From positions 84,045 to 148,044 of the forward strand of contig JAGVEX010000019.1 of the NCBI GenBank assembly GCA_020057885.1: a stretch of DNA of 64,000 bases, in the 5' to 3' direction. This DNA is from a bacterium. GTDB taxonomy: Bacteria; Patescibacteriota; Patescibacteriia; Veblenbacterales; UBA10138. Below the pieces are notes generated by a model. It was not told the DNA's origin. It was given only the letters and a program-made list of their open reading frames with translations, and did not search any database. A program made the translations under genes and the position numbers. Below, one piece after another: positions 35,020-53,939 of the stretch (within the stretch, counting starts at the first letter, position 1; every line of letters starts with the position of its first letter).

Positions 35020-36369
35020 TCACCTTATCCACTCCACTGCCTCGTATATAGTTTTTACAGAGGCTATTTCCAGCCCTTTGGGTAATTTAGCATTGGCTGG
35101 CAACCCGGCTGTTAGGGCCTGTTTAAAACCCAAACGAGCGGCCTCCTGCAGACGCTTTTCTGCGCCCACCACCGGCCTTATCTCGCCACCCAAGCCTACC
35201 TCTCCAAAAACCACCAAATCATTCGGTAGCGGCCTTTTTAGGGCAGCTGAAGCCACCGCCGCGCATACTGCCAAATCCAAAGCCGGCTCACGGCTTTTAA
35301 ACCCACCTGCTAAATTAATATAAACATCACTAAAATTTAATTTCACTCCCGCGCGTTCAGCTAAAACCGCCAACAAAACCTGCAAACGATTAACATCAAA
35401 ACCAGTGGTAGCTCTTTTTGGATAATTTAATCTGGAGTGAGTTACCAATGCTTGTAACTCAATTAGCAAACTACGCGAACCTTCTAGCACCGCCGTAATA
35501 CAGGAACCAGCCCCCAAATGACGTTCAGCTAAAAATATAGCAGAAGGATTTGTTATCTCACGTAACCCCGCCTCGCCCATTTCAAACACACCAACTTCGT
35601 CGGTCGGACCAAAACGATTTTTATTAGCGCGTAAAAAACGTAAAGCTTGGTGTTCAACTCCATCTAAACTCAAAACCACATCAACTAAATGTTCAATTGT
35701 TTTGGGTCCAGCGGCTACGCCTTCTTTGGTAACGTGGCCAATTACAACCACTGCTATACCAGTTTCTTTGGCGAGTGCCACCAATTCTGACAAAATCATT
35801 TTAACTTGTGTGGGAGAGCCAGGATTACCCACCCCTTCGGACGCGCGTATGGCTTGCAAAGAATCAATTACTAATAAAACTGGGTTTAATTGCCGCGCTG
35901 TGGCTATCACTGTATTAATATCAACTTCATTGGTAAAAGAAATATTTTTACCTTTAAGTCCCAAACGTTTTAATCTGTTTGCTACTTGCTCCACAGATTC
36001 TTCGCCCGAAACATAAAGCACTGAGCCTGAACAACGCTCAGCCAAGCCAAGCAGTAAAGTGGATTTACCCACACCTGGCTCGCCGGTTAACAAAACAACC
36101 ACAGCCGAAGCGAGTCCTCCGCCTAACACTCTGTCTATCTCCACCCAGCCCGTAGCCAAACGGCGCGCTGGCGTTTCACTAATATGATCGCTAAGTGAAA
36201 CTGTGGCACCAGCGAGGTTCAACGCTGTGTGTTGAGTCTGACGGGTAACTGCGGTTGGCTCCGTGCCTACAGTGCCAAATTTACCACATTGGTTACAACG
36301 CCCTACCCATTTAGGGTATTGCGCGTCACAATTTGAGCAAATATAAATAATAGATGATTTAGGAGACAT
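35020..36369 (-). CDS. radA: DNA repair protein RadA/Sms
   Basis: N-terminal C4 zinc finger, Walker A 'GEPGVGKSTLLL', the 'KNRFG' motif, and a Lon-like C-terminus. Confidence 0.9.
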   Translation of the reverse strand: MSPKSSIIYICSNCDAQYPKWVGRCNQCGKFGTVGTEPTAVTRQTQHTALNLAGATVSLSDHISETPARRLATGWVEIDRVLGGGLASAVVVLLTGEPGVGKSTLLLGLAERCSGSVLYVSGEESVEQVANRLKRLGLKGKNISFTNEVDINTVIATARQLNPVLLVIDSLQAIRASEGVGNPGSPTQVKMILSELVALAKETGIAVVVIGHVTKEGVAAGPKTIEHLVDVVLSLDGVEHQALRFLRANKNRFGPTDEVGVFEMGEAGLREITNPSAIFLAERHLGAGSCITAVLEGSRSLLIELQALVTHSRLNYPKRATTGFDVNRLQVLLAVLAERAGVKLNFSDVYINLAGGFKSREPALDLAVCAAVASAALKRPLPNDLVVFGEVGLGGEIRPVVGAEKRLQEAARLGFKQALTAGLPANAKLPKGLEIASVKTIYEAVEWIR

Positions 36370-37505
36370 TATTTAATACAAAATTTAGATAATGGACTAG
36401 AGCCAGGATATTCAAAATGCCATTTTTCACGTTTACTAACAATGGGATTGCCTATTAACTGACAAAAACCAGCTTGCTTCATAATACCAGTTAACACATC
36501 TTGGCAAGGATCACTGGAGCTCTTGCCTTTGCACACCACGTCAACTGCCTGACCTGTAGTATGAGGACAATTAGCTTTATCTGGTTTAGGCTTACAAGTG
36601 TCCACTAAACATTTTCCATTTTTACAATTCTCTTCGTAAAGTTTTAATTGTTCGGCGTAAGTGCGTGAAGCATAATTAATTTCAATTTTTAAACCTTGAT
36701 TTTGGGCAGCTCGCGCAACTGTCAATAAAGTCTGCAATACATCTTCACGTAAAAAAGGATACTTGGCCGCGTCGGCATCTAAATAAAGAGTGGGGTTATC
36801 TTCTGGAATGCGCACTAAAGCAGGATAACCAGGAGGATTTTCCACCTCTTCTTCCACTAAATCAAGGGTTTGGCGTGGAATAGTAGTAATATCTAAAGTT
36901 TTAAAACTAACCAAAGCAGGGTTGATAAGATTTAAAAGTGTATAAGAAATTAAAGCTAACACTAAACCAGATATAGCGCTTATAATAGCGTCGTTAGCAT
37001 CTTTAACCCGCTCTGGCGAGCCAGCGGCCATAATACGTTTAAATCCGCCCCACGTTACCATTACGACTGAGGTTACGGCCAACATGGCAATAAAAAATTT
37101 ATAAAAAAGACTTAAGTAATTAACAAAAGTATCTCCCGTTACAACTATCCCCTGACCTGCTTTAACTTCAAAATTTTTACCAGCAATAGAAATACTGCCT
37201 GGAATGGTAATTTGTGGTGTAAATTCAATTGGCCCACTTTTTTCTTCACTCACACCAACGCCGCCACCAGTTGAAGGCGCCGAATCGTCGCGTACACAAC
37301 TATATGTTTCCCAGGTATCAACGCCACTGGCACGACTAGCATTACGGTGTTCACATTTAAAACCAGCACAACATATAATCTCTTGGCAATTGCCTTCGGC
37401 TGTAGTGCCTCCGGCCACGCAAGCTAATATCGCTTGAGGTGTGATTAACCAAAATAAACCAACCACTGCAACTATAATAAAATGCCACTTTTTTTTCTGA
37501 ACCAT
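36369..37505 (-). CDS. Cys-rich secreted protein with a central VirB2/TrbC-pilin-like double-transmembrane core (paralogue A)
   Basis: A signal peptide, Cys-rich segments, and the core 'FYKFFIAMLAVTSVVMVTWGGFKRIMAAGSPERVKDANDAIISAISGLVLALISYTLLNLINP'. That core is roughly 90% identical to the core of ORF 41374..42732. Confidence 0.5.
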   Translation of the reverse strand: MVQKKKWHFIIVAVVGLFWLITPQAILACVAGGTTAEGNCQEIICCAGFKCEHRNASRASGVDTWETYSCVRDDSAPSTGGGVGVSEEKSGPIEFTPQITIPGSISIAGKNFEVKAGQGIVVTGDTFVNYLSLFYKFFIAMLAVTSVVMVTWGGFKRIMAAGSPERVKDANDAIISAISGLVLALISYTLLNLINPALVSFKTLDITTIPRQTLDLVEEEVENPPGYPALVRIPEDNPTLYLDADAAKYPFLREDVLQTLLTVARAAQNQGLKIEINYASRTYAEQLKLYEENCKNGKCLVDTCKPKPDKANCPHTTGQAVDVVCKGKSSSDPCQDVLTGIMKQAGFCQLIGNPIVSKREKWHFEYPGSSPLSKFCIK

Positions 37506-37508
37506 AAA

Positions 37509-40537: not shown

Positions 40538-40559
40538 TTATATTGATTAAAGGAATATA

Positions 40560-41108
40560 TTGTTAACAATATTAATGATAATTAATTTTATGGAACAACT
40601 AAGTCTAACAAAACAAATCCTTCTTACCTTACTCGATGGGGCTTCTGAATTAAGAGGCATGCATAAAAATATGAGACTTATATCTCCTTTTCGCGGCATA
40701 ACCAAAACGCCAAATTATTATGTATCGCTTGGACGACTCAAACGGCGTGGTTACATAAAACAAATAAATAATAACTATTATTTAACTTTACAGGGCAAAC
40801 AATTAGCGCAACATTTACTTGTCAGACAAGCTCTTAAGATAAAAAGCCAACGTTGGGACGGGCAATGGCGTATGGTGTGTTTTGATATTCCAGAAAAATT
40901 AAGACGCGAACGAGCGGCTTTACGCAATTTTCTTTATCGTTCCGGATTTCGAAAATTACAAGAAAGTGTCTGGCTAACACCATATGACGTAATAAAAGAA
41001 GCTGTTGACACATGGAAAGAACTTGGGCTGGCGCCTTATGTTCGCACAGCGCTTATAAAATCGCTTGATAACGAAATTGAATTTAAAAAACTATTTAAAC
41101 TCACCTAA
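40560..41108 (+). CDS. PaaX-like protein with an N-terminal winged-helix and a C-terminal Cas2-like motif (cassette 1)
   Basis: The N-terminal half looks like a wHTH. The C-terminal half has 'WRMVCFDIPEKLRRERAALRNFLYRSGFRKLQESVWLTPYD', a Cas2/PaaX_C-like beta-alpha-beta core. It is a paralogue of ORF 53388..53939. Confidence 0.55.
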   Translation: MLTILMIINFMEQLSLTKQILLTLLDGASELRGMHKNMRLISPFRGITKTPNYYVSLGRLKRRGYIKQINNNYYLTLQGKQLAQHLLVRQALKIKSQRWDGQWRMVCFDIPEKLRRERAALRNFLYRSGFRKLQESVWLTPYDVIKEAVDTWKELGLAPYVRTALIKSLDNEIEFKKLFKLT

Positions 41109-41204
41109 ATCACGACGGTCGTTATTAAATTTTAAGTAAATTAAAACAACTTACTTAATATTAAGTAAGTTGTTAATAAATTTATAACTTTTTTATCTAT
41201 CTAA

Positions 41205-41230
41205 CACTTTTGGTCGGTCGACCAAAAGTG
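41205..41230. repeat. GC-core palindrome P3 ('cacttttg-gtcg-gtcg-accaaaagtg'), the right border of cassette 1
   Basis: 9-bp arms 'cacttttgg' / 'ccaaaagtg'. The centre is the palindrome 'ggtcgacc' carrying a 4-bp 'gtcg' tandem duplication. Confidence 0.55.
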
Positions 41231-41289
41231 TAAGGTTTAAAAAATAAGGGTTAATAATAGTTTAAATTAAATAAATTGTTTAGACTAAA

Positions 41290-41373: not shown

Positions 41374-42732
41374 TTATTCCTCTAACTTACTAACACAATG
41401 AGCGCCAAACTTACTCACCTTGCAATCCTTTTTACAAACATCATAATAACATAAGGCCATCTTAGGTTCAAAGCTATCACAATCACTAAATTGGGAACAG
41501 GTTTGAATAATCTCATTAACCCAAAGACTTTGAATATTATCATTACATGGCTTCCCCATAAATACAGCGTTCCAATTTGGATAGCATGCATTCAAATATA
41601 AAGCACAAGAATTGGTCACACCGCCACAATCAGCATCAGAAGTGCATATATCACCCTGTTTAAGACCACTGTCACATTTTTGAACGCGATAACTAAACTG
41701 ATTACAAAAATTAGTAAAAGACTGAATAGTGCTATCACCCCAATCAGGTAATCCATATATACTCTTGGCTATATCCATATTTATAGCCATACAGGCTTCG
41801 TTGGGATTTAAACACTCATAGTCCTCCTCAGATATACCAGTATTACCTACGCGAACGCAGCCACCCTTACCACTCTCACACGACGACCCAATACATGACT
41901 GTCCATTAATACTCTCTTTAACACCACACTTATAATGAATACTACTATCAAGTGGATCAGGGTCTGGACACCATTTTCCATATAACTCCGTTTTAACTAT
42001 ATCCATATTAAGACGAGTAAAATTAACAAGTTTAGGATTTACTAAATTAAGAAGTGTGTAAGAAATAAGAGCTAGCACTAAACCTGTGATTGCAGAAATA
42101 ATAGCGTCATTGGCATCTTTAATACGCTCTGGTGAACCAGCAGCCATAATACGCTTAAATCCGCCCCACATTACCATTACTACCGAAGCTACGGCCAACA
42201 TGGCAATAAAAAATTTGTAAAATGCCGCCAAATATCCAGGAAAACCACCACTAACAACGCTGCCGTAACCAGGAATTGGTATTTGTAAATTTATATCCGG
42301 AGTTTTTACAAAACAACGCGCTGACGGGGCCGTACAATTAGATGAATCACTTCTATCCTCATCAAAATCACCTTTCGCGCTATTACATTGCTCTTTCGTC
42401 CAACAATTATTAAAAATTGACCCCGTGTCAGTTGTTTTTGCTCCCGAAACTTTTGTACAACTATTATCCAGATAAGGTTTGCATAGCCAAGTATATACAT
42501 TATAATTTGAATTTATTCTATTTAACTCATCTGTTTTATTAATACAATCATTTGAAGACAAATTTGGAAAACATTCAGCTACTGCAGTAACATATGTTGT
42601 ATCTATAGACACCTTGTCACATCCACAAGAATCCGCCTGCGCGGGCATAGCAAAAATAAACACACCAAACATCAAAACGGCTATTTCAACTATTATTGGA
42701 ATTTTCTTTAATAAATGCATAGCTTTACTCAT
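41374..42732 (-). CDS. Cys-rich secreted protein with a VirB2/TrbC-pilin-like double-transmembrane core (paralogue B)
   Basis: A signal peptide, the core 'FYKFFIAMLAVASVVMVMWGGFKRIMAAGSPERIKDANDAIISAITGLVLALISYTLLNLVNP', and more than 30 cysteines in the N- and C-terminal extensions. Confidence 0.5.
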   Translation of the reverse strand: MSKAMHLLKKIPIIVEIAVLMFGVFIFAMPAQADSCGCDKVSIDTTYVTAVAECFPNLSSNDCINKTDELNRINSNYNVYTWLCKPYLDNSCTKVSGAKTTDTGSIFNNCWTKEQCNSAKGDFDEDRSDSSNCTAPSARCFVKTPDINLQIPIPGYGSVVSGGFPGYLAAFYKFFIAMLAVASVVMVMWGGFKRIMAAGSPERIKDANDAIISAITGLVLALISYTLLNLVNPKLVNFTRLNMDIVKTELYGKWCPDPDPLDSSIHYKCGVKESINGQSCIGSSCESGKGGCVRVGNTGISEEDYECLNPNEACMAINMDIAKSIYGLPDWGDSTIQSFTNFCNQFSYRVQKCDSGLKQGDICTSDADCGGVTNSCALYLNACYPNWNAVFMGKPCNDNIQSLWVNEIIQTCSQFSDCDSFEPKMALCYYDVCKKDCKVSKFGAHCVSKLEE

Positions 42733-42802
42733 TTTAACACACTTTATAGTATTAAAGCGCTAATAATCAATTTACTTAAACGCTTGCCATAATACTAAAA
42801 AA

Positions 42803-43285: not shown

Positions 43286-43377
43286 AATATTAGTGAATTA
43301 CGAATCATGAATCACGAATTAACAATTAAAAATAAATTCAGTATTCAGTATTCGTGATTCGGTATTCAAAAATCAAA
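43286..43377. repeat. Intercistronic heptad-repeat hairpin ('gaattac gaatcat gaatcac gaattaa ... ttcagta ttcagta ttcgtga ttcggta ttcaaaa')
   Basis: Strict 7-nt periodicity. 'gaatcacgaa' pairs with 'ttcgtgattc'. It fills the whole spacer between two minus-strand genes. Confidence 0.5.
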
Positions 43378-43941
43378 CTACTCACTCTCCCAACTCGCGC
43401 TATCTACCAACCAATTTTCTCCTGACTTACTTAAACTAACACGCAGGGTAGCATAAGAAATTTTAACCTCACCGTCACGGGTGAATACTTCCTGGCGCTG
43501 GGTTGAGATGGTTAATTCGGCCGCGCTGTCAGTTTGTCTATCTACTTTGGCCACCAAAGCTTTGGTAGTAACACTATAAAAACCAGCTGGCTTGGTTCCG
43601 GATTTAATAATACTATTCACCCTCGTTTGAAAAGAGGGGGTTAAAATGCCTGTTAAATTCTTTAAATTTTCATAAGGCATATCGTTGGAATAGGTGCCAT
43701 AGCGTTCGGCAAAGTTAAGCGCTAAAACACGCGCCGAGAGTGTGGTATCTGTTAGTTTGGGGATCGGCTCAACAACGCCAGTTGGCGTATTTATTGTTGG
43801 TGTATTTGTTGAAACTGCTGGCTGATTAATATTTGTGTTTACATTTGTATTATTATTTTGTAACCAAAAATAAAGCCAAACCGCTAGTAAAATGACTAAA
43901 ATTATTACTAAAACTAAAAGAATTTTGGAGCGACGAGACAT
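43378..43941 (-). CDS. Bitopic membrane protein, possibly a VirB8-like scaffold
   Basis: N-terminal transmembrane helix, a Thr/Asn-rich linker, and a roughly 120-aa extracytoplasmic domain. Its position next to VirB4 suggests the role. Confidence 0.3.
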   Translation of the reverse strand: MSRRSKILLVLVIILVILLAVWLYFWLQNNNTNVNTNINQPAVSTNTPTINTPTGVVEPIPKLTDTTLSARVLALNFAERYGTYSNDMPYENLKNLTGILTPSFQTRVNSIIKSGTKPAGFYSVTTKALVAKVDRQTDSAAELTISTQRQEVFTRDGEVKISYATLRVSLSKSGENWLVDSASWESE

Positions 43942-43960
43942 AAAATAATTAATAAAAGTT

Positions 43961-44110
43961 AATAAAATCCTAAATCTTAAATCCTAATATCTAAATAAAT
44001 TTTAATAACAGAAAATTTAATTAAATTATTTTGTTTTTAGATTATGTTTGTAAATTTTACGCATTGGGAATTGGGAATTATTTAGGGTTTAGACATTAAG
44101 ATTTGAAATT
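43961..44110. promoter_or_regulatory. About 150-bp intergenic repeat unit (copy A). It holds 'TAAATCC'-type heptads and 'cattgggaattgggaatt' and also occurs at 46808-46945.
   Basis: Copies A and B are about 85% identical by eye. On the minus strand the heptads read 'tagatat taggatt taagatt taggatt' and sit upstream of the ATG at 43941. Confidence 0.45.
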
Positions 44111-44188
44111 TATATTATATTCTTTAATCCACCTGCAACAATTAATTTAATATTCTTAATTCATGGTTCGGTATTCGTGATTCTAAAA

Positions 44189-46054
44189 CTAACCAATGTC
44201 TGGCTCTTTCAGGCTTGCTTCAAATTCCTTTTTGGCTTGCTCTATTTCCAAAAGCTGACGAGGATCAGAAGTAATAAGCTGATCTTCGGTGTAAGAAGCC
44301 ACTATTTTAATAGCCGCGTGCTTAGACCCGGCAAAGAAAATGCCCTCACCCACACCACACTCCAAAAGTAAATATTTTTCTCCCTCTGTCAGTAAGAAGG
44401 TTTTTACTACTTTATCAATTCCAGCAGGAGACTGTTTGAGCAATAATTGCAAGGCTGAGTTATTAACAATTGCCTGACCATAGGGCGAGGTTAAGAAATC
44501 ATTTACATCTTGTGTAATTGTGGTAACGCCAAGATAATATTTACGACAACGCTTAACTAACGCAAAAATAAACTTGGCGCTATCTTCGTTTTGCATTAGC
44601 CACCACGCTTCATCAATAACTAAAACACGTTTTTTCATTTCTGAGCGCACTACATTCCAAATGTAATTAACGATTGTATAAATCGCAATCGGCCGTAACT
44701 CATCTTCTAAATCGCGTACAGAAAATACTACTAATTGGTTTTTTACATCCACGTTAGTGGGCCTGTTAAAAAGTCCGGCAAAAGTACCGTCGGTATATTT
44801 TTTAAGCCTCAATACCAAATCTTCGCCCCCTTGCATACCCGCGAGCACCTCTTGAAAATCAGCCATCACCGGCGACTCCACTTTGGTTAAATCGGAATTG
44901 GGCGTAATATCTTTTTTGGCATAAGTTTCTAAGAGGGCTCTATCAACCAACGAATCCTCTTGATGAGTAAGGGTGCCAAGCATTAAACGCATTAAACCTT
45001 TTAGGGTAATTACAGCGGAACGAATAATATCGCCTGTATTTACCTCGCCCACTGGCCTGGGTAAATCAAAGGGATTAATTTTAGATTCAGAATTCAAAGA
45101 AATATTAATGTAAGCACCACCCACAGCATCGGTTAAATGCTTATATTCCATTTCTGGATCAATAATAATTACATCGGTACCCATCATTAAACTACGCAAC
45201 ACTTCCAGTTTTACAGCATAGCTTTTGCCAGCGCCCGAAGTGGCAAAAACAGTCATATTGGCATTTTGCAAACTAAATCTATCAAATAAAATCAAGGAAT
45301 TATTGTGTCTATTTATACCGTATAAAATACCACTATCACTAGTTAATTCCGAGGAAATAAAAGGGAAAGAAGAAGCGGCGGGCGAACTGTTCATATTAAA
45401 GTAAACTTGTAGTTCGTCGTTGGCGAGGGGTAAGGTGGAGTTAAAGCCTTGTTCTGATTGCCAAAGAGCGCGCCGTGAATAAACCAACTTTGAACCAAGC
45501 ATGCTTTCTACTTCCTCTGTTATTTTGTCTAACTCTTTTTTATCTGGAGCATACAGAGTAAGATAAAGCCCGACTTGAAAAAAACGTTCCGTGCCTTGAG
45601 TTAAACTGTCGCGCAATTGTTCAATATCGTGCAAAGCTGTTTCGCGAATCGGGTCGCGCGGAGCGCCTTTATCATGGTCGGCCACCAGTTGGGCCTCAAT
45701 TGCACCCACACGATTACGCAGTTGTTTTAAAATGACTTCTGTTTTTACATTATAGAAAAACATACTTACATCCAAAGTCGCGTTCATATTCACAATTGGC
45801 GCAAACCAACCAACCGAGATATAGCGAGGATAAGTGAGTATAAATAAAGTACGCAAATATACGCCGTTTAACTCCACGTGTTCCGATTGAACACGAAAAG
45901 CAGCTGGTGCAATTAAATCACGCACCTTTACCGAGCCCTCGCGCAATAAGCGCTCAGCCTCTAAGAGTTCCTTTTCAGTAGCTTGCCCCAACTCTTCCAC
46001 GGGCGGAGGGGGCGGCGCTAATTCACTGGTTACTTTTGATACATCAATGGCCAT
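44189..46054 (-). CDS. VirB4/TrbE-family type IV secretion ATPase, C-terminal ATPase-containing part
   Basis: Walker A 'ATSGAGKSYAVK', Walker B 'RVLVIDEAWWLM', and a VirB4-like middle region. 621 aa. Confidence 0.75.
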   Translation of the reverse strand: MAIDVSKVTSELAPPPPPVEELGQATEKELLEAERLLREGSVKVRDLIAPAAFRVQSEHVELNGVYLRTLFILTYPRYISVGWFAPIVNMNATLDVSMFFYNVKTEVILKQLRNRVGAIEAQLVADHDKGAPRDPIRETALHDIEQLRDSLTQGTERFFQVGLYLTLYAPDKKELDKITEEVESMLGSKLVYSRRALWQSEQGFNSTLPLANDELQVYFNMNSSPAASSFPFISSELTSDSGILYGINRHNNSLILFDRFSLQNANMTVFATSGAGKSYAVKLEVLRSLMMGTDVIIIDPEMEYKHLTDAVGGAYINISLNSESKINPFDLPRPVGEVNTGDIIRSAVITLKGLMRLMLGTLTHQEDSLVDRALLETYAKKDITPNSDLTKVESPVMADFQEVLAGMQGGEDLVLRLKKYTDGTFAGLFNRPTNVDVKNQLVVFSVRDLEDELRPIAIYTIVNYIWNVVRSEMKKRVLVIDEAWWLMQNEDSAKFIFALVKRCRKYYLGVTTITQDVNDFLTSPYGQAIVNNSALQLLLKQSPAGIDKVVKTFLLTEGEKYLLLECGVGEGIFFAGSKHAAIKIVASYTEDQLITSDPRQLLEIEQAKKEFEASLKEPDIG

Positions 46055-46060
46055 AAAAAT

Positions 46061-46098
46061 TTAAATCCTAAATTCGAAATCCTAAATCCTAAAAAATT
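46061..46098 (-). promoter_or_regulatory. Heptad array ending 3 nt before the VirB4-C ATG (minus strand reads 'taggatt taggatt tcgaatt taggatt taaattt')
   Basis: Same motif family as the arrays at 16238, 46808 and 62486. Confidence 0.45.
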
Positions 46099-46107
46099 AA
46101 TTTTTAA

Positions 46108-46797
46108 TTAGTTTGTTTCTACTTGCAATTTATCTAATTCGACTAATTTTTGTTGCTCTCTAATTTCGGGATTATAAGTTGTATAATAAAGCTCAATCAA
46201 ACTTTGCGTATCCAGCCTAACCGCTTTTACACCCATAGAAGATAAGCCCGATTGAATATATCCGGTGCGCCTATCCAAAGCCTCGGCGTAACGGTTAAAA
46301 TCGGTACGCGATAATTTTACTGAATAAGCCGCGGAAAAAATTGAAGTAAAGCGTCTAAAAAAAGAACGCCGTTTATCTGACCTGTGGTCATATGTTACCA
46401 CCACATAAAACCGTTTGGTCATAATATCACCTAAACTAATAAGCTCGCGAATATAAGCGAGATACTCTGTAATTTGCACGCGTAAAAGTTCGTTAGTTTG
46501 TTGTTTTTGTAAAGCCTCCAAATTAGTCAAATATTTATCTATATTAAGTTTACGCGATTGAATAACTATCTGTAGAGGAGAATCCAAAGAATTAAGAAAA
46601 TTAATATAGGCCTGAATAGTGGCATTTTGTTCATCTTCACTTTTAAGCGCAAAATTAACCGAGGAACACAAAAACACCGAGCGCAGAGTGCCATCTTTCA
46701 TCACCACACAATTATCGTGAATTTCGGCAATATCTAAATACGAACTGGTAGGCGGACCGGCTTTGGCTTTTTTTGGTTTAGTTTCAGTTTTGGACAT
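46108..46797 (-). CDS. VirB4 N-terminal domain (CagE/TrbE/VirB-type) encoded as a separate ORF
   Basis: 'CVVMKDGTLRSVFLCSSVNFALKSEDEQNATIQAYINFLNSLDSPLQIVIQSRKL' follows the characteristic VirB4 N-domain pattern. It is in a different frame from the ATPase ORF and separated from it by 53 nt. Confidence 0.55.
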   Translation of the reverse strand: MSKTETKPKKAKAGPPTSSYLDIAEIHDNCVVMKDGTLRSVFLCSSVNFALKSEDEQNATIQAYINFLNSLDSPLQIVIQSRKLNIDKYLTNLEALQKQQTNELLRVQITEYLAYIRELISLGDIMTKRFYVVVTYDHRSDKRRSFFRRFTSIFSAAYSVKLSRTDFNRYAEALDRRTGYIQSGLSSMGVKAVRLDTQSLIELYYTTYNPEIREQQKLVELDKLQVETN

Positions 46798-46807
46798 AAA
46801 ATATAAA

Positions 46808-46945
46808 TTAAATCCTAAATTCTAAATCCTAATATCTAAATAAATTCCAATACCAAAAACCAATTTAATTATTTTTAGATTACACTTATCAATTTTACAC
46901 ATTGGGAATTGGGAATTATTTAAGATTTAGACATTAAGATTTAAG
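46808..46945. promoter_or_regulatory. About 150-bp intergenic repeat unit (copy B) with 'TAAATCC' heptads, ending 13 nt before the VirB4-N ATG
   Basis: See copy A. The minus strand reads 'tagatat taggatt tagaatt taggatt taattta'. Confidence 0.45.
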
Positions 46946-46962
46946 GCTTAACTAACATATCT

Positions 46963-47418
46963 TTACTCTTCGCTCTTACTAACTTCATCTTCTTCTGGCT
47001 TATAGGCTCCTCCTGTATCCACTAATAAAGTAAGTTGTTGTAAACGTGATTGTTGCAAAAGCGGCTTAGTGCGGCCACTAGCAGTGGCTACTATGGGAAT
47101 TGACTTATGAATAGATTCTTGCAAATCATCAGTGCTAATAACTTTTTGCCACACGCGGAGTTTGGGTTTTTTTAAGGTTTGTATGAGGTTAAACAAAAAG
47201 TAATGAAATGGCATACCGTTAAATTTCACAAACGCAAACATAATACCTATGCCAACTGTTATCACTGTCTCCAGAACAAACCAACCAAAAGCCGCTAATT
47301 TAAACTCCAAAAAAATAACAAAACCAACCAGCATTATAATTATAAACTGACGTATGGTAAGAGGACCGATTATTTTATCCTCGACGTCTATAAATTGTGG
47401 CACGACAATTTGCTGCAT
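46963..47418 (-). CDS. PrgI / VirB3-like small type IV secretion membrane protein
   Basis: 'MQQIVVPQFIDVEDKIIGPLTIRQFIIIMLVGFVIF' matches the PrgI-family N-terminus. Two transmembrane helices. It lies immediately upstream of the VirB4 genes. Confidence 0.5.
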   Translation of the reverse strand: MQQIVVPQFIDVEDKIIGPLTIRQFIIIMLVGFVIFLEFKLAAFGWFVLETVITVGIGIMFAFVKFNGMPFHYFLFNLIQTLKKPKLRVWQKVISTDDLQESIHKSIPIVATASGRTKPLLQQSRLQQLTLLVDTGGAYKPEEDEVSKSEE

Positions 47419-47458
47419 AGGTGAAAGTAAGTGTAAGAGTATTGAGTAAGAGTAAAAA

Positions 47459-47803
47459 TTAATTAGCCATTAAACCAGTTAACATGCGAGCTATTTCTTC
47501 ACTTTGTTGATAAATGATATCAAATCTAGGTTGCGTTATAAGTGATTTATCTACTAGCAACATACTTACGTTGATAACTTCATAAACTGAACCTTTGGCA
47601 ATATTGTAAAAATTATTTGCTTCTTTTTTAGATTTTCTGCCACTACCCTCAGCAATGTTATTAGGCACCGAAATAGCTGCTCTAATTAAATTATTGCCTA
47701 TAGTATAACGATAATCATTTGGTAATTTTTTAACGTCATCTATTATGTCGCTACAAAACCTTTGTGATTTTTTCCATACTTCTAAGGTTTCAAATTTAAA
47801 CAT
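47459..47803 (-). CDS. Four-helix-bundle protein (TIGR02436 / '23S rRNA intervening sequence protein' family)
   Basis: 'FETLEVWKKSQRF', 'NIAEGSGRKSKKE' and 'IAKGSVYE' signatures. 114 aa. Flanked by 'GTAAGAG' heptad repeats. Confidence 0.7.
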   Translation of the reverse strand: MFKFETLEVWKKSQRFCSDIIDDVKKLPNDYRYTIGNNLIRAAISVPNNIAEGSGRKSKKEANNFYNIAKGSVYEVINVSMLLVDKSLITQPRFDIIYQQSEEIARMLTGLMAN

Positions 47804-47829
47804 ACTCTTACTCTTAACTCTTACTCTTA

Positions 47830-50052
47830 CTAAAATCTTATCTTCTGATTAAAATCTATTATGGCGTTGAATTCGGCTTCGGAAAGTGTTTGTTCGCCTT
47901 GTGTTTGCAAACTAGCCACTATTTCAACAATTGATTTTTCTTGTTCAATGCTAGCTCGGCCTAGTTTTAAATAGAGTTGGTACACAGGCGAAGCTTGCCA
48001 AGAACGCACTGCTTCCACCCGCCGCGATACTGAAGTTTCGCCAATCAAATCTATTTTGGCTCGAACTTTATTCAAAGCCTCCACGGGCGATGAATCAAGC
48101 CTCCTAAAATCAACTAGGTTCAAACTTTTTAACTCTTCCAGTGGACCTAAGGTTCGTGGTGGCGCTTTAATATCTGTTAATTGTGGCCTAATGTTGTTAG
48201 TTGCTCCTAATTCTTGTCCACTTGTTCCTAATTTGGGTGGTGATGGGGGCTGTGCCCCGTGATCAACTACAGTTGATTTTACGGGGGGTGGGGGGGCGGC
48301 TTTGGAAATTTCTTTTAACAATTCCTCCCGCCAATTTTTAAATTTATCCTCACTAAGCGGCTTGTCTTCAATTTTAGTTGCTTGGGCAGCTACCCTAATA
48401 TCTGAACTCTGAATTTCTTTAGGATTTAGCCTGCCTGCGACTCGATTGAGCTCGCCGAAATCCGGTAGGTAGGGATTTTCGGATTTAGGATTTAATTCAC
48501 CAATCTTATCACTCTTGGGTAAAACCACTTGGGGGCCAGTGACCGGTGATGGAGGGCTAACAACTATTGGCTTATCTTCCCCCATTAATTTATCCAACTC
48601 GCTTTGCATTTTTTCCTGTTCTGTTTGTGGCTTACTATTTACCACTGGTGCAGGTTCTTGCTTCGTGATTCTTACTTCGTGATTCTTACTTCGTGATTCA
48701 AACTCACTTTTAGCATCTTCAATAATTTTTATAACTTGTTCTGTTTTATCAACCGGCAAACCTAAACCGCCCGAAGTTACTGGTTTTAATAATGTTTCGC
48801 GCACTTCCACCACATTGCGCACATCTTTTAAGTGTGATACAAACAAATTTATAAACCTGCGCTTGCCAACTTCGTCCTTAAAACTAAAATTATGTTTTTT
48901 AATTGTTTCATCGGCGAGCACTCTTAATTTTTCTTCTAATGTATTCATGATTCGTAATTCAGTATTCGGTATTCTTAATTTATCAACTTCTTTCTCATCT
49001 TCCAAGTTAAAAAAGAATGCCGGTTCAGTAGTTTTTAAGGCTTGAGGAACAAGTTGATTTGTTATTGGTGATACTAATTCTTCTGTCTGTACTCGTGCTT
49101 TGTAATCAGATGCAGTTAATTTTGTGGAGACTGGTCCTGAAGCAGACATTTTAACCACTGCTGGCGCTAACCGAACTGAAATTGGTAGCTCTGCCACCTC
49201 AGTTGCTATTGGTACAGGGACTATTCCAAATGATTGCTGGATAGTTATCGTATTATTTTTCTGTAAATCAATTTTACTTGCCTCTTTATTATTTAAAATA
49301 CTGTTTACTTTAGCGAAAATATCCTTAATACTATTTTCATTATATTCCTCAAACCAACCACCTTTCACCCAACCAGATTTAGCCCCGTCTATCGGAATAC
49401 TTTCCTCTAACCCCTCTAATTCAGTTGATAACAAATGGCAATGTTCATAAACATTTATCAAGTCTCTAAATTTGTCACGCGAGGCAGGTGACAACACCCT
49501 TAATAATTGCGATGAGGAAAAATACTGTTCTTGTTGATATTTATCACTTCTTTTATTGGCCGTAAATACTAAAAAATCTTTTAAAAAGCCGCCAACGGTT
49601 AGGTTGTTTTCTTTCCAATCTGGTAATCTTATTTTTTCTTGATTATTTAACAAAACGTCTATGATTTGTTTTTTTAATTTATTTCTATCTTCATAAACTA
49701 ATATACTTAATAAAGCGCTTTTAAATTTATTATTCAGTTTAAAATCTTCTATCTGCCACGCATCATTAATATGATAATGAAATTGTTCAACAATCTCACT
49801 TTCGTTTAACAATGATAATCCTACCCACTTGCAATGAGCGATGATCTTTTGATAATTACTATATAATTGACCAAACTTCGAATCAATTTTACTCTCTTTT
49901 AAACCAAACTCTAAAGATCTCGCTAATTTATAAGCAGACTCATAATCATCATACTTTTCTATATCACTCAAGCTAGTCAACATCTCCTGATAAACTACAA
50001 GCGATGTTAATGGATATTGTTCAATTAATTGTTTTATACTTGCCATAGACAA
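47830..50052 (-). CDS. Hypothetical cytoplasmic protein (740 aa) of the type IV secretion-like cluster, with a Pro/Lys-rich low-complexity C-terminal third
   Basis: No transmembrane helix or signal peptide. Heptad-type DNA repeats are embedded in the coding sequence at 48660-48700 and 48945-48980. Confidence 0.45.
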   Translation of the reverse strand: MSMASIKQLIEQYPLTSLVVYQEMLTSLSDIEKYDDYESAYKLARSLEFGLKESKIDSKFGQLYSNYQKIIAHCKWVGLSLLNESEIVEQFHYHINDAWQIEDFKLNNKFKSALLSILVYEDRNKLKKQIIDVLLNNQEKIRLPDWKENNLTVGGFLKDFLVFTANKRSDKYQQEQYFSSSQLLRVLSPASRDKFRDLINVYEHCHLLSTELEGLEESIPIDGAKSGWVKGGWFEEYNENSIKDIFAKVNSILNNKEASKIDLQKNNTITIQQSFGIVPVPIATEVAELPISVRLAPAVVKMSASGPVSTKLTASDYKARVQTEELVSPITNQLVPQALKTTEPAFFFNLEDEKEVDKLRIPNTELRIMNTLEEKLRVLADETIKKHNFSFKDEVGKRRFINLFVSHLKDVRNVVEVRETLLKPVTSGGLGLPVDKTEQVIKIIEDAKSEFESRSKNHEVRITKQEPAPVVNSKPQTEQEKMQSELDKLMGEDKPIVVSPPSPVTGPQVVLPKSDKIGELNPKSENPYLPDFGELNRVAGRLNPKEIQSSDIRVAAQATKIEDKPLSEDKFKNWREELLKEISKAAPPPPVKSTVVDHGAQPPSPPKLGTSGQELGATNNIRPQLTDIKAPPRTLGPLEELKSLNLVDFRRLDSSPVEALNKVRAKIDLIGETSVSRRVEAVRSWQASPVYQLYLKLGRASIEQEKSIVEIVASLQTQGEQTLSEAEFNAIIDFNQKIRF

Positions 50053-53000
50053 TTACAAAGTTTTGGTTTTAACTTTAGCTTTATCTAAAACCTCGTCTGC
50101 ATTCATATAAGCCTCTTTAGCTGGAACACCTCCTTTTTTAGATGGTATAGAATTTATCTTTGCTAACAACGCTGGCATAAAACCACTTTCTTCTATTATC
50201 TTGCCCTCTTTGTCCTTTTTGCCATTCCAATCTTCTCTCATTCTATCTGCAGTTCGTTTCCTTTTTTCATATTCTTCTGGATCGGTCGCTTTGTATTTTT
50301 CTGCCCCCTCTTGAATACTTTGTGCCTCAAGTTCAATTTTTATACCAATTTGTTTTAGTACTTTCATGTTATCTTCGCTGTTCATATTTTCTAACATGTT
50401 GCCATTAGCCTCCCTCATATGTGTTTTAAGTTCGGAATAATGTTCCAGTATATAAGCAACGCCCATTTCGTTTAAAACCGCCTTACGGCCCTTGCTAAGA
50501 TCATTTGGATCTATTGGTTCTTCGTCCATCCAGGCACCACGATTAGATTGACGCCACACGGTCCTCATATCCCGTTTACCGATTTCAACATAACAACGCT
50601 GTTTTTGTGTCTCACGATCACGTTGTTTAAATAAACCATTATCCATTGATACGGCTTGACCAAATGTCCACCAACCCTTATCCTCTGCCACATTACTTAA
50701 ATCATTTTCTAGAGACAAATAAGATTGTTCTTTCATATGAAACTTGTGTCCCATAACCTCATTCATAAATTTATGTAAGCCATCAATGTTGGTTTTATAA
50801 CCTTGATCTTCTAAAATTTCATTTAAATGACCTACTTCGGTAGCTCTAGCCATAATAGCCTGTCCTAAAGCAGAATCACCCCTGTTAAGGGCATCGCGAA
50901 ATCTTGATTTTAATTCATCTTCATTAGTCGTGGTTATTTTCTTCTTTTCTTCATTTACATGCGCACGACCTGCCGCAGTAGCATAATAATTTTGTAATCG
51001 ATAACACCCCTCTCTTTCAATTTTCTTACCAACCTCTTCTGCTTGTCTACGCTTGTCTTTGCGCTCAGATAATGTAAGCTCTGGTGTTTCTAAACGATAC
51101 TGCAAGTTAGCACTTTCGTTGTTAAGTTCTAAAATTTTATTTTCTTTATCTTTCTTTTCATTGTTAGTAAGTTTGCTAAAGTCACTCATATCTTTTTTTC
51201 TTTTTTCCATTTCTTTAAGATTTTCCTTGGCTGTTGTTGTATCCTCTCCACGAGCTTCTTTGGCTGTTATATCTTTTTTTTCTTTATCAATTTCTATTTG
51301 AATCTCAGCTATAATTTTTCCACGTTGCTCTTTTTGGGCATTAGTAAGAGTATCTTTCCCTAATTCCTCAACCTCTCTTTTAATTACCTCTTGTCTTTTC
51401 TTTAACAATCCACTTCCTTCGTCGTTTAATATTTTCCTTTCTTCAGCAGTAAATTTATTTCTCATAACATCATCCATAATATCCTCTTCTTTTTCTCCGG
51501 CTGCTTTTCGTGTTACAATTTCGCTTTTTTGATCAATAACTTTTTTCTGCAAATCACTGTTTGCTAATACGCCTCCATTTAAAACATGTTTTATGGCTGT
51601 TTCTGACTTGCTTTCAGCTGAGGATTCTTTGTTTAATTTCTCTTGCCGACTCTGTAATCCTTCAGTCTTTTTGGCATTACTAAATATACCTCTAATTGTT
51701 TTGAGATATAAAAATCCTTGTAAATTATCTCCTATATCTTCCGAGCCTAAAGAAGCTGCTAGTCCTCGTACACCACCTTGGGCTATATTAGCCGCGGCGG
51801 CTTCATGAAGCTCGCCTTCTTCTTTGTGTTTTTTTGTTGCAAAACCTTCTTTTACATTTTTCCAAGCTTTAACAGGGTTTAATTCATACCCTTTAAGCCA
51901 CTTGAAGCCTGGCACTTTACCTGCCCCAGCTTTTCTAGCTGCCCAAGAATAAGTACTAAAGGGCGCCAAAGCGCTCTTTTTAGCCATCCATGATCCTCCT
52001 TTTTGAATCGCGCTCATCGCACTCCCGGCCAATTTTCCCCCCGCCACGCCGAGTTGCTGTGTCATCCATAAACCGCCCAAAAGCAACATAATGCTAACAA
52101 TAAAAGAAAGCAAAACTTCTGATTGACCAATACTAGTAATAGTCGCGGCGGGAAGTCCTGAAGTTCCTGTGCTAACTCCCGTAAGAGTGCTAGCTGTAGA
52201 TCCGCCCGACATCTGCATTACTGCCAAACTTAACCACAAAAAGAAAGCGAGAATAGGCCCGCTGGAAGCATATTTGCCAAAATAATCCCACCACTGCGAA
52301 GCATACTTTTTAGCATCTCCCGGAAAAGCCTGCAAAATATAAGCCGCGGGAGAAATAATTACCAAAAGCCACAGCATTACAATTCTAAGCGTAAACACCA
52401 CAATATAAACTCCAACTACAATAGTGGCAATGGTAATGGTAATAAGTGCCAAAGCCGCCGCAAAAAAGAAATCTGAACCCGTTGTAGTTACAGTTTGATT
52501 CGAACCTTTTTCCGCGAACTGAAACATATCCTTAATATGGAAACCATTTATAAAGTTGCCCGTAGCCGCATCCTTAAACCCGTTTACAAAAGTAAGCATT
52601 ACCACCTGCGCAAAATCAATAAAGAATCCGGCAATACCTTTGGAAAAATTAACCAGTACTGCCATAATAAGCAATTTGGAAAGTAGGTGTTTGTATTGAT
52701 ATTCCTCCACGCGGAATACTGTACCAAAAGAAATAGCCAACAATATTACAATAAAAAACATGTTTACCACATCCCTCATTACCACCCAACCTTTTACTAC
52801 TGCTGGCGCATCAATAAAACCGTTGTATTGCACAATTTCCACTAAAATACCTATCAAAGCATTGGCGATTGCTCCCACCCCTTGGGCTAAAAGTAACAAA
52901 AGTCCAGCTAAAAGGTTAATTACAGCATCAGAAACTATATTGGCATGCGCTGGTATTGGTAAAAGCAAGGCCAAAACAAAAATACCTAAAATACCCGCGG

Positions 53001-53061
53001 CCGTGGCGCGTGAATATTTAAGTTTGGATGAAAATATTTGTCTTAATTTACCACTAACCAT
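50053..53061 (-). CDS. VirB6/TrbL-like polytopic membrane protein with a roughly 600-aa K/E-rich coiled-coil C-terminal extension
   Basis: Signal or transmembrane start, at least 6 transmembrane helices in the first roughly 380 aa, then a long charged hydrophilic tail. 1002 aa. Confidence 0.45.
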   Translation of the reverse strand: MVSGKLRQIFSSKLKYSRATAAGILGIFVLALLLPIPAHANIVSDAVINLLAGLLLLLAQGVGAIANALIGILVEIVQYNGFIDAPAVVKGWVVMRDVVNMFFIVILLAISFGTVFRVEEYQYKHLLSKLLIMAVLVNFSKGIAGFFIDFAQVVMLTFVNGFKDAATGNFINGFHIKDMFQFAEKGSNQTVTTTGSDFFFAAALALITITIATIVVGVYIVVFTLRIVMLWLLVIISPAAYILQAFPGDAKKYASQWWDYFGKYASSGPILAFFLWLSLAVMQMSGGSTASTLTGVSTGTSGLPAATITSIGQSEVLLSFIVSIMLLLGGLWMTQQLGVAGGKLAGSAMSAIQKGGSWMAKKSALAPFSTYSWAARKAGAGKVPGFKWLKGYELNPVKAWKNVKEGFATKKHKEEGELHEAAAANIAQGGVRGLAASLGSEDIGDNLQGFLYLKTIRGIFSNAKKTEGLQSRQEKLNKESSAESKSETAIKHVLNGGVLANSDLQKKVIDQKSEIVTRKAAGEKEEDIMDDVMRNKFTAEERKILNDEGSGLLKKRQEVIKREVEELGKDTLTNAQKEQRGKIIAEIQIEIDKEKKDITAKEARGEDTTTAKENLKEMEKRKKDMSDFSKLTNNEKKDKENKILELNNESANLQYRLETPELTLSERKDKRRQAEEVGKKIEREGCYRLQNYYATAAGRAHVNEEKKKITTTNEDELKSRFRDALNRGDSALGQAIMARATEVGHLNEILEDQGYKTNIDGLHKFMNEVMGHKFHMKEQSYLSLENDLSNVAEDKGWWTFGQAVSMDNGLFKQRDRETQKQRCYVEIGKRDMRTVWRQSNRGAWMDEEPIDPNDLSKGRKAVLNEMGVAYILEHYSELKTHMREANGNMLENMNSEDNMKVLKQIGIKIELEAQSIQEGAEKYKATDPEEYEKRKRTADRMREDWNGKKDKEGKIIEESGFMPALLAKINSIPSKKGGVPAKEAYMNADEVLDKAKVKTKTL

Positions 53062-53387: not shown

Positions 53388-53939
53388 ATGACCAAAATTC
53401 CACCCCTCACTAAACTTCTACTTTATTGCCTGTTAAAAAGCGGGCAATCAATAATTGACTATGCCGTATTTATGCACGACCTTAGGCAATGGCGAGGATT
53501 ATATTCAATGGGTGGTAGTGCTCGTGTTAGTGAAATTAAAAAATTACAAAATATATCAAGCGCAAAAATCTGCCTGCGTAAGCTTAAAGAGGGTAAATTT
53601 ATCAAAGCGCGCAAAATTGGCAAAAAACTTATTATAGAACTTACAGACAAGGGGGTGGCTGCGACCTTAAGTGAACAATTGCGACAAGAAACTTTACTAC
53701 CGAGTGGCACTTACACGCTGGTGATTTTTGATATTCCAGAAACAGAGCGGGAGGCGCGGCGACATTTCCGCTGGCTACTGCGGCAAGGGGAATTTATTAA
53801 ACTGCAACAAAGTGTTTGGATAAGCAAGCATAATGTGCAAAATACAATTACCCAATTTGTAAAAAAATTAAAACTGGAAAAATGGGTTAATGTTGGTTTG
53901 GTAAGCAATTTGTTTACTGTGGCAAAAAATAATTTATAA
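53388..53939 (+). CDS. PaaX-like wHTH / Cas2-like-motif protein (cassette 2)
   Basis: 'YTLVIFDIPETEREARRHFRWLLRQGEFIKLQQSVWISK'. Same size and layout as ORF 40560..41108. Confidence 0.55.
   Translation: MTKIPPLTKLLLYCLLKSGQSIIDYAVFMHDLRQWRGLYSMGGSARVSEIKKLQNISSAKICLRKLKEGKFIKARKIGKKLIIELTDKGVAATLSEQLRQETLLPSGTYTLVIFDIPETEREARRHFRWLLRQGEFIKLQQSVWISKHNVQNTITQFVKKLKLEKWVNVGLVSNLFTVAKNNL

Follow-up and report, generated by a model that had tools for sequence, protein, structure and literature searches.

A VirB4 encoded by two genes, TrsD plus VirB4, is a normal and already described arrangement in Patescibacteria and in some Gram-positive plasmids. According to a 2025 survey (Quinonero-Coronel et al., PMC12102498), TrsD is the most abundant T4SS component in Patescibacteria, with 2,272 homologues, 1,664 of them adjoining virB4, and it is listed there as essential in S. 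epibionticum. Wang et al. (2023, PMC10633639) reported the Patescibacteria T4SS to be essential in Southlakia epibionticum. In the survey, TrsD has no assigned function and its homology to the VirB4 N terminus is remote, while TrsC is treated as a distant PrgI homologue. Because TrsD is absent from the main text of the source cited for the TrsD/VirB4 homology (Guglielmini et al. 2014, PMC4027160), we credit that homology to the 2025 paper. On the Staphylococcus aureus plasmid pGO1, TrsD (227 aa) and TrsE (672 aa) are encoded 14 nt apart, and the small gene in the VirB3 position is annotated as hypothetical; Pontibacillus and Sulfobacillus plasmids are split likewise. The locus studied here came to attention through a sequence-only reading that called a split VirB4 unusual, which it is not: such a split is the rule in Patescibacteria, is found also in pGO1 (TrsD/TrsE) and other Bacillota plasmids, and has been described in the literature.

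The window (the whole 64,000-nt stretch of DNA that was analyzed) belongs to a Patescibacteria (CPR) genome, nearest among named groups to Veblen- and Kerfeldbacteria, with a chromosomal, monoderm-type T4SS cluster typical of the phylum. Both ORFs were confirmed at the coordinates given in the sequence-only reading, and both are on the minus strand. The TrsD-like gene (46108..46797) encodes 229 aa annotated to the Pfam TraC-like family (PF26593), a stand-alone first sub-module of the VirB4 N-terminal region, and the VirB4 ATPase gene (44189..46054) encodes 621 aa comprising the remaining N-terminal region and the P-loop C-terminal domain. The first ends in a TAA stop at 46110-46108 and the second begins with an ATG at 46054, leaving a spacer of 53 nt (46055..46107; 15% GC); their starts are 743 nt apart, and the two ORFs are therefore in different frames.

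The surrounding genes form the set expected of a Patescibacteria T4SS cluster, namely VirB4, a TrsD-like protein, PrgI/VirB3 and VirB2-like pilin genes, in synteny with the related loci L001 and L002. Immediately upstream lies the gene for a PrgI family (VirB3-like) membrane protein (46963..47418, minus; Pfam PrgI, E 5.8e-9, 36.8 bits versus a 27-bit cut-off), a position likewise filled in L001 and L002. The intergenic region after the ATPase gene (43942..44188, minus) leads to a conserved gene of 187 aa (43378..43941, minus) whose product has an N-terminal hydrophobic segment and gave nothing above noise in Pfam; a gene of 185-192 aa occupies the same place in L001, L002, L085, and L091. The order PrgI, TraC-like, ATPase, ~190-aa gene is kept in L001, L002, L004, and L091. 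Also in the cluster is a T4SS pilin domain protein (41374..42732, minus; Pfam T4SS_pilin, 28.1 bits versus a 26.6-bit cut-off), syntenic in L001 and L085. A 1002-aa ORF (50053..53061), considered as a VirB6-like candidate, has no Pfam match, and for a 1112-aa protein whose gene lies upstream in the L002 cluster the sole match, to TrbL, is weak.

The ATPase is readily recognized in the 621-aa product. The Walker A (ATSGAGKS, residues 271-278) and Walker B (VLVIDE, residues 477-482) motifs that had been reported were located, and the protein scores 350.9 bits against NF045971, the CD1110-family VirB4 model, with a cut-off of 325 bits. Residues 236-595 align to 4AG5, a solved VirB4 C-terminal domain (E 8e-49), and to residues 446-740 of TrwK. 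A structure prediction for this protein from a 32-sequence alignment of 80% mean identity, too shallow for the purpose, returned an unusable pLDDT of 42. The 120 best homologues are 549-651 aa long, with 75-100% identity. The initiator Met of the ATPase is invariant, Ala is the consensus at position 2, and the protein begins with a proline-rich, linker-like stretch.

The 229-aa product is more remote from characterized proteins. The VirB4 N-terminal pattern previously noted in it is borne out by profile comparison, in which it matches the N-terminal portions of full-length VirB4 profiles. Precomputed annotation of this very protein gives PF26593, which a local Pfam search did not return. The TrsD/TraD model NF041427 gives E 1.7e-7 but only 31.3 bits, so far below its 200-bit cut-off that the homology to TrsD must be called remote; all 43 of the 43 family members tested match this model, and hhalign of the family profile against pGO1 TrsD gives E 4e-5 and a probability of 70%. 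The predicted fold of the small protein matches TrwK/VirB4 only, and this fold comparison alone succeeded, as sequence and profile searches against PDB sequences yielded nothing or noise. The 120 best homologues are 197-243 aa long (55-97% identity) and are all from Patescibacteria, while the family profile matches 3494 clusters at 50% identity, the best 150 representatives of which are 132-443 aa long. The C terminus KLQVE is nearly invariant.

Placed on VirB4 models, the two products occupy successive stretches. On the CD1110 model, which is 752 positions long, the small ORF matches 19-136 and the ATPase ORF matches 179-730; the corresponding spans are 96-240 and 288-892 on VirB4_plasma and 8-181 and 238-727 on TIGR00929. 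On these profile coordinates the products are colinear, complementary parts of a full-length VirB4, with the small one representing approximately the first 180 residues. The break had been placed between the N-terminal domain and the ATPase, and although the split stands, its position does not: the cut falls within the VirB4 N-terminal region, since the 621-aa protein keeps ~235 residues ahead of its ATPase domain, with a match to the CagE_TrbE_VirB N-domain family at 139-209. It does not contain the whole of the N-terminal region, as its match starts at position 179 of 752 in CD1110.

Rather than the missing piece, the small protein might be an extra subunit, paralogous to the VirB4 N-terminal domain and accessory in role. 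Such a role would suit the unassigned function and the merely remote VirB4 homology given for TrsD in the literature (PMC12102498), as well as the 100-200 additional C-terminal residues of some family members. However, in three independent VirB4 models the small ORF colinearly fills the very stretch that the ATPase ORF is missing. Nor is it a duplicate of the ATPase ORF, since the two window proteins have no detectable similarity (hhalign probability, 0.5%), and their summed length of 850 aa is near that of a single-chain VirB4 (TrwK, 823 aa). We consider an accessory paralogue very unlikely.

VirB4 organization among relatives, which the sequence-only reading had proposed to examine, was compared across 80 loci from 80 species, 76 of which had enough DNA to judge the downstream ORF. 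A small ORF with its own stop was found in 80 of 80 loci. All 76 judgeable loci have a separate downstream ORF, of 620-690 aa in nearly all complete cases and identified as VirB4 by annotation or homology in L001, L002, L004, and L091 only, and none has a fused gene. Spacer length ranged from about -29 to 509 nt among the 76 species, with a median that depends on the choice of start codon (11 nt for the longest-ORF start, 36 nt for a homology-anchored start).

These data decide whether the split is an artefact, or a recent pseudogenizing frameshift, in a normally single virB4. There are grounds for raising the question: the ORFs are in different frames, and the spacer repeat is of a kind prone to assembly trouble. 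Logan contigs from SRR6489632, an independent assembly, reproduce the stop, the array, and the ATG, but are interrupted within the heptad array, with the sequence reproduced on either side. A real artefactual break is also known from the L003 assembly, where the ATPase gene is divided into 487 + 164 aa and is intact at 633 aa in L002. Against this, no fusion occurs in the 80 species loci, in the 120 + 120 closest homologues, or in the 150 cluster representatives; the KLQVE end and the ATPase initiator Met are near-invariant and invariant, respectively; and a stop followed by a separate start is found in four of four independent samples with proteins 97-99% identical. The artefact reading is thus already refuted by the comparative data, and we assign it next to no probability. 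The earlier conclusion that this is a genuine gene split holds, on evidence considerably stronger than the heptad argument originally advanced for it.

Equally improbable is that a fused, full-length VirB4 arises when ribosomes cross the spacer by programmed frameshifting or stop read-through, a reading for which the adjacency of the ORFs is all that speaks. The minus-strand spacer contains additional stop triplets, and among the 76 species the frame of the ATPase start, measured against that of the small ORF, takes all three values (31, 24, and 21 loci), over the wide range of spacer lengths given above. An Rfam scan of 43300-47900 at E<=1 returned no match. Judged by sequence, the split is ancient, conserved, and complementary.

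The spacer itself carries a solo TTAGGAT heptad array at 46058-46092. Read on the minus strand, it runs TTAAAAATTAATTTT, then the units TTAGGAT, TTAGGAT, TTCGAAT, TTAGGAT, and TTAAATT, then TTT and the ATG; Tandem Repeats Finder places 4.6 copies of a 7-nt period at 46062-46093. If the degenerate fifth unit is included, 3 nt separate the end of the array from the ATG, as had been stated. We found no inverted repeat in these 53 nt, and the spacer RNA folds no better than shuffles (z +1.7). The 14-mer TAGGATTTAGGATT, allowing <=2 mismatches, occurs 11 times in the window versus 1.03 expected, and 0 of 100 shuffles reached 11. As the sequence-only reading had also seen, comparable arrays stand before other genes, a short way ahead of the starts at 43941, 46797, and 62477 (minus) and at 16280 and 31635 (plus).

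A full-length intergenic element between the PrgI and TrsD-like genes (46798..46962, minus) combines a 5' AAATCTT-type array, two ATTCCCA units, a loop, and a 3' TAGGATT-type array into a long imperfect hairpin. Its 25-nt inverted arms are 84% complementary, and its RNA fold has -35.1 kcal/mol (z -3.3). It is 84-85% identical to a second copy of the element at 43954-44104, in the region after the ATPase gene, where GAATCAC-type heptads precede that copy. Folding of sense versus antisense strands was mixed, being better for sense at 46798-46962 and for antisense at 43942-44188 and 43286-43377, so that no conclusion follows on an RNA-level role via G-U pairs.

The heptad array is thus real and enriched, but it is not particular to these genes, and its presence at this site is not conserved. 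In L001, whose small ORF is 83% identical and whose ATPase homologue (P0126) is 88% identical, the spacer is 13 nt and free of heptads, as is the 23-nt spacer of L002. In strains with 98-99% identical ATPase proteins, the site is occupied by a hairpin element of 168 nt or by an unrelated element of AAAAATC/GATTTTT type. An element that is both unspecific and unconserved here is unable to carry the argument for independent initiation that had been built on it.

A more specific proposal is that the TAGGATT array is a dedicated expression signal, whether promoter, multi-copy ribosome-binding site, or operator, for regulated initiation of the ATPase gene. In its favor, the window has six intergenic TAGGATT-type arrays, and every one of them is on the sense strand with a start codon 3-28 nt downstream. 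AGGA is present in each unit, and its last occurrence precedes the ATGs at 46054 and 62477 by 11 nt and the one at 31635 by 12 nt. The corresponding spacer of L083, a Uhrbacteria relative, contains an array of similar kind (TTAAGAT, TTAGAGT, TTAGAGT, TTCGAAT). However, the interval between the final AGGA and the ATG varies from 11 to 28 nt, and the heptad-free spacers of L001 and L002 and the replacement elements of the near-identical strains are difficult to reconcile with a dedicated signal. A consensus scan of 43300-47900 for sigma-70 promoters and intrinsic terminators gave site counts not above shuffles and none in the spacer. Moreover, heptad arrays of many other sequences occupy other spacers and, in-frame, even coding loops. 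We therefore regard a dedicated signal as improbable.

Periodicity of seven extends well beyond this spacer. By a 16-of-21 criterion (a stricter detector gave just one array), the window has 10 period-7 arrays, 8 of the 10 intergenic, versus 0-3 at periods 5, 6, and 8-13, and the 80 related loci have 165, versus 2-33 at periods 4-6 and 8-13. The unit sequences (TTAGGAT, GAATCAC, and others) vary between genomes, with no transposase identified in association with them. Comparable intergenic repeats are cyanobacterial STRR heptamers, REP/BIME, and Rickettsia palindromic elements. With these, and with repeats of the TAACTGA type, the window arrays have in common short tandem 7-nt units concentrated between genes; their unit sequences differ from those of the TAACTGA and STRR types, and they often form inverted pairs able to make hairpins. 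The TAACTGA heptanucleotides are intergenic repeats reported from Beggiatoaceae (PMC4679880), and a limited literature search found no description of period-7 arrays for Patescibacteria. Widespread, hypervariable, and partly absorbed into coding loops, these arrays are more curious than the split itself. It is conceivable, though we think it rather unlikely, that they are functional, fast-turnover intercistronic elements of many Patescibacteria, existing as inverted-heptad hairpins or solo arms, that govern translation or mRNA processing between operon genes; where the TrsD-like and VirB4 genes meet, such elements would break the coupling of the two VirB4 halves, whose ratio would be tuned or phase-varied as units or a whole arm are gained and lost.

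Taken together, we consider it highly probable that two neighboring genes here supply VirB4 in the form of separate polypeptides, one TrsD-like and ~230 aa long, the other ~620 aa long, in a conserved arrangement like that of pGO1. VirB3 is bound to the N-terminal domain of VirB4 in the structures of the R388 T4SS, and by analogy the two products may assemble non-covalently into a VirB4-like unit, and the small protein could form its membrane-proximal, VirB3-contacting part. The gene arrangement suggests that both genes are most likely co-transcribed in a long minus-strand cluster. In most relatives the two appear close enough for translational coupling. Here, the solo arm of a lineage-specific, hypervariable heptad element would have expanded the spacer to 53 nt, and we propose that the ATPase gene must consequently start translation de novo; a weak Shine-Dalgarno site may be provided by the array's final AGGA, which precedes the ATG by 11 nt. 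Annotation should neither merge the two ORFs nor flag them as a frameshifted pseudogene, and the small gene is best named as a TrsD-like N-terminal module of VirB4.

Compared with single-chain VirB4 proteins, such as the CD1110 family of Clostridioides elements and TrwK of R388 (PDB 7O41/8RTB), the two window proteins jointly cover the whole profile, and the N-terminal region and ATPase domain are matched by their folds or sequences; the difference is that the window chain is cut after ~180 positions, inside the N-terminal region. Fused VirB3-VirB4 proteins are colinear with the window order of PrgI, TrsD-like, and VirB4. A further stand-alone relative of the VirB4 N-terminal region is the SCO6880 family of Actinomycetota (477 model positions). 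Its model matches both window proteins weakly (small ORF 167-215 on 244-293, ATPase ORF 138-211 on 404-476), and to judge from these coordinates the family would span the whole N-terminal region, with its break at a different place from that of the window.

The pGO1 system, of the MPF-FATA pGO1-type subclass, shares with the window both the break point and the succession of a small gene in the VirB3 position, a protein of ~227 aa, and a VirB4 ATPase of ~670 aa, the order TrsC-TrsD-TrsE corresponding to PrgI, TrsD-like, and VirB4. The similarity is remote: TrsE residues 36-617 align to residues 46-584 of the ATPase ORF (E 1e-45) at 25%, and the small protein is far below the TrsD-model cut-off. 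In addition, pGO1 is conjugative and encodes a relaxase and a coupling protein, whereas the window cluster is chromosomal and has pilin-domain genes. By the profile coordinates, TrsD and the short VirB4 together make up one full-length VirB4, with the same break in pGO1 and in Patescibacteria, which gives TrsD an obvious candidate structural role. That the two are complementary halves of a full-length VirB4 is not spelled out in PMC12102498 and emerges here from the profile coordinates, which is a small refinement of published knowledge and not a discovery. In the T4SS already described for Patescibacteria (PMC12102498, PMC10633639) the same parts recur, namely VirB4, an adjoining TrsD homologue, PrgI/VirB3, and VirB2-like pilin-domain proteins; nothing substantive sets the window apart from the systems of the 2025 survey, of which it is one more member.

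The small, TrsD-like ORF (46108..46797, minus strand; 229 aa, TAA stop) is followed by the VirB4 ATPase ORF (44189..46054, minus strand; 621 aa, ATG start). Their starts lie 743 nt apart, so that the two ORFs are in different frames, and they are separated by a spacer of 53 nt with 15% GC. Read 5' to 3', the spacer comprises TTAAAAATTAATTTT, the heptads TTAGGAT TTAGGAT TTCGAAT TTAGGAT TTAAATT, and TTT-ATG; TRF reports the array as 4.6 copies of period 7. With up to two mismatches allowed, the window contains 11 occurrences of the doubled heptad versus 1.03 expected, a count reached in none of 100 shuffles. The sequence-only reading had described the ORFs, frames, stop, 53-nt spacer, and heptad array accurately in every detail.

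That reading also favored a genuine gene split over a sequencing frameshift and proposed a comparison with VirB4 organization in related genomes, where we found two genes throughout. We compared 80 loci, each from a different species-level genome (Kerfeld-, Veblen-, Buchanan-, Falkow-, Uhr-, and Kuenenbacteria and others). The small ORF has its own stop in all 80, a separate ORF follows it in 76 of the 76 loci with enough downstream DNA (620 to 690 aa in nearly all of these where complete), and a fused gene occurs in 0 of the 76. Because the ATPase start is spread over all three frames relative to the small ORF (frame 0 in 21 loci, frame 1 in 24, and frame 2 in 31), a conserved frameshift mechanism is excluded. 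The closest 120 homologues of the small protein, all from Patescibacteria, are 197 to 243 aa long with 55 to 97% identity, and the closest 120 of the ATPase are 549 to 651 aa long with 75 to 100% identity. When 1.84 billion cluster representatives were searched with the profile of the small-protein family, 3,494 clusters matched, the best 150 of which span 132 to 443 aa, none long enough to include an ATPase. The small protein ends in a near-invariant KLQVE, the initiator Met of the ATPase is invariant with Ala as the consensus at position 2, and the order PrgI, TraC-like protein, ATPase, ~190-aa protein is preserved in four related loci (L001, L002, L004, and L091). An independent Logan assembly of SRR6489632 recovered the stop codon, array, and ATG, with contigs ending inside the heptad array. 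The stops in all 80 loci, the lack of fusions, and this assembly bear out the genuine split.

A contrast case for an artefactual split came from Buchananbacteria. The ATPase gene is cut (487 + 164 aa) in one ENA assembly (L003:6705-8719) and intact (633 aa) in a JGI contig with the same neighboring protein (L002:6705-8606); the cut is probably an assembly or sequencing break.

The ATPase protein scores 350.9 bits on the CD1110-family VirB4 model (curated cutoff, 325), with the alignment limited to model positions 179 to 730 of 752. Its residues 236 to 595 align to the crystallized VirB4 C-terminal domain 4AG5 (E = 8e-49) and also to TrwK residues 446 to 740, with Walker A at 271 to 278 and Walker B at 477 to 482. 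The small protein covers positions 19 to 136 of CD1110, 96 to 240 of VirB4_plasma, and 8 to 181 of VirB4_CagE, and the ATPase protein covers 288 to 892 and 238 to 727 of the latter two. These complementary ranges make the two proteins colinear, nonoverlapping pieces of one VirB4. The sequence-only reading had divided them into an N-terminal domain and an ATPase. Its two genes stand, but the break does not coincide with that domain boundary; it falls within the VirB4 N-terminal region, as ~235 residues precede the ATPase domain in the ATPase protein, including a CagE_TrbE_VirB match at 139 to 209. The N terminus of this protein is a proline-rich, linker-like segment (PPPPP at 14 to 18).

The heptad element had been offered as an argument for the split. 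It is real, but it is not what proves the split, nor is it a conserved signal of the ATPase gene. L001, whose small protein and ATPase homologue (P0126) are 83% and 88% identical to those of the window, has a 13-nt spacer without heptads, as does L002 (23 nt). The spacer is hypervariable among strains with 98 to 99% identical ATPase (flanking proteins, 97 to 99%). In the window (46055-46107, 53 nt), it holds a solo TAGGATT arm; L004 (L004:789-956, 168 nt) has a complete hairpin element there, as does L092 (L092:1-163, at least 163 nt), and L091 (L091:789-869, 81 nt) has unrelated AAAAATC/GATTTTT inverted arrays. The complete element consists of a 5' AAATCTT-type array, two copies of ATTCCCA, a loop, and a 3' TAGGATT-type array, and has two copies in the window (46798-46962 and 43954-44104) that are 84 to 85% identical. 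The fold of the former is a long hairpin (-35.1 kcal/mol, z = -3.3); the intergenic region containing the latter (43942-44188) folded no better than shuffles (z = 0.0), and neither a partner arm nor structure was found in the 53-nt spacer.

A dedicated role for these arrays in expression is conceivable: all six intergenic TAGGATT-type arrays in the window precede a start codon in the sense orientation. We consider such a role unlikely. The distance from the last AGGA to the ATG varies from 11 to 28 nt, there were no Rfam matches in 43300-47900, a promoter scan found sites no more numerous than in shuffles, and sense versus antisense folding energies showed no consistent strand preference.

Period-7 arrays are widespread. 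The window has 10, versus 0 to 3 at periods 5, 6, and 8 to 13. Sequence outside long ORFs, 15% of the total, holds 8 of them. The 10 arrays include 3962-3998, 16237-16267, 38178-38217, 43294-43367, 43965-43994, 46061-46097, 46805-46839, 62485-62517, and 62596-62624. The 80 related loci (L005 to L084; 602 kb, 80 Patescibacteria species) contain 165, versus 2 to 33 at periods 4 to 6 and 8 to 13. Most are intergenic, several intergenic spacers contain inverted pairs, and the unit sequences vary by genome. A limited literature search found no description of tandem 7-nt arrays for Patescibacteria.

Some heptad repeats are coding. An O-antigen-ligase-family gene (2866-4260, minus strand) has two in-frame heptad-periodic stretches, 3962-4060 (a pair of inverted arrays) and 3534-3564, encoding AKNFKIQSSNTKPNSKSESLNFLTFGFWNLDFR and NVKIKNQNAKW; in homologues, these loops carry low-complexity inserts of unrelated sequence, e.g., NFKFLIFNFKSNF. 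Rickettsia palindromic elements occur inside genes, and these stretches resemble them. In a 740-aa ORF of the T4SS cluster (47830..50052, minus strand), GAATCAC/GAAGTAA-type heptad arrays at 48655-48700 and 48941-48974 (TRF period 14, 3.2 copies, 96% matches) are in frame, encoding ESRSKNHEVRITKQE and RIPNTELRIMNT as read from the translation.

There were other features in the cluster. Between the 740-aa gene and prgI (47419-47831) lies a 23S-rRNA-intervening-sequence protein gene (47459..47803; PF05635, E = 1e-29), flanked by inverted hexamer arrays (GTAAGA type at 47803-47831, complement at 47426-47455); its absence from the syntenic clusters of L001 and L002 makes it look like an insertion. 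Two plus-strand ORFs inside the minus-strand cluster, 53388..53939 (183 aa) and 40560..41108 (182 aa), are 28% identical, with a PaaX_M/Cas2-like domain preceded by weak, subthreshold winged-helix matches and GC-rich palindromes on their flanks (53286-54013 and 40506-41241); the former lies between the two copies of a perfect 40-nt direct repeat (53286-53325 = 53974-54013). A segment repeated ~5.1 kb apart (36369-39523 versus 41374-43375; 36902-37106 and 42018-42222 are 81% identical) has matching heptad spacers, and both copies are inside T4SS_pilin-domain genes, one of which, 36369..37505, encodes a VanY peptidase domain as well. The cluster is headed by a giant 2,768-aa ORF (54171-62477, minus strand) with faint domain matches only, whose counterpart in the corresponding place in L001 is 2,728 aa long.

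How might the two proteins work together? Both genes are conserved, always adjacent, colinear with fused VirB4, and directly after the VirB3-like gene. In R388 T4SS structures, the VirB4 N-terminal domain is bound by VirB3. VirB3-VirB4 fusions also exist (PMC12102498). Because of this contact and these fusions, we propose that the small protein is most likely the VirB3-proximal module and that it docks noncovalently on the ATPase protein, at its N-terminal part. Most relatives have a short spacer (median, 11 nt, range, -29 to 509, with longest-ORF starts; median, 36 nt, with homology-anchored starts), often without a visible Shine-Dalgarno sequence, which fits translational coupling in relatives. 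With its 53-nt spacer, the ATPase gene of the window probably needs de novo initiation, and the last AGGA, 11 nt before its ATG, could act as a weak ribosome-binding site.

A split VirB4 had been expected to be unusual; it is not. The arrangement is shared with staphylococcal plasmid pGO1 and other Bacillota plasmids and is already published for Patescibacteria. In pGO1, TrsC is followed by TrsD (227 aa) and, after a 14-nt spacer, by TrsE (672 aa; annotation, DUF87). TrsD matches the small-protein family profile (E = 4e-5), and TrsE residues 36 to 617 align with window ATPase residues 46 to 584 (E = 1e-45), which places the break at the same point. With the small protein as the query, tblastn against plasmids returned 33 records, mostly Bacillota; on a Pontibacillus plasmid, a 274-aa gene overlaps a 621-aa CD1110-family VirB4 gene, and on Sulfobacillus pL15, a 194-aa gene abuts a 607-aa "TraC" gene. 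A Pfam family for the stand-alone small protein already exists (TraC-like, PF26593). It is precomputed for the exact window protein and all its homologues; our local Pfam-A scan gave a discrepant result, a subthreshold TraC_F_IV match only. Among the T4SS components of Patescibacteria, TrsD is reported to be the most abundant (Quinonero-Coronel et al. 2025, PMC12102498), and its homologue is listed there as essential in Southlakia epibionticum, whose T4SS cluster is reported to be essential (Wang et al. 2023, PMC10633639). The arrangement is already known, then, as TrsD plus VirB4; that the short VirB4 and TrsD complement each other to make up one full-length VirB4 comes from the profile coordinates obtained here and is unstated in PMC12102498.
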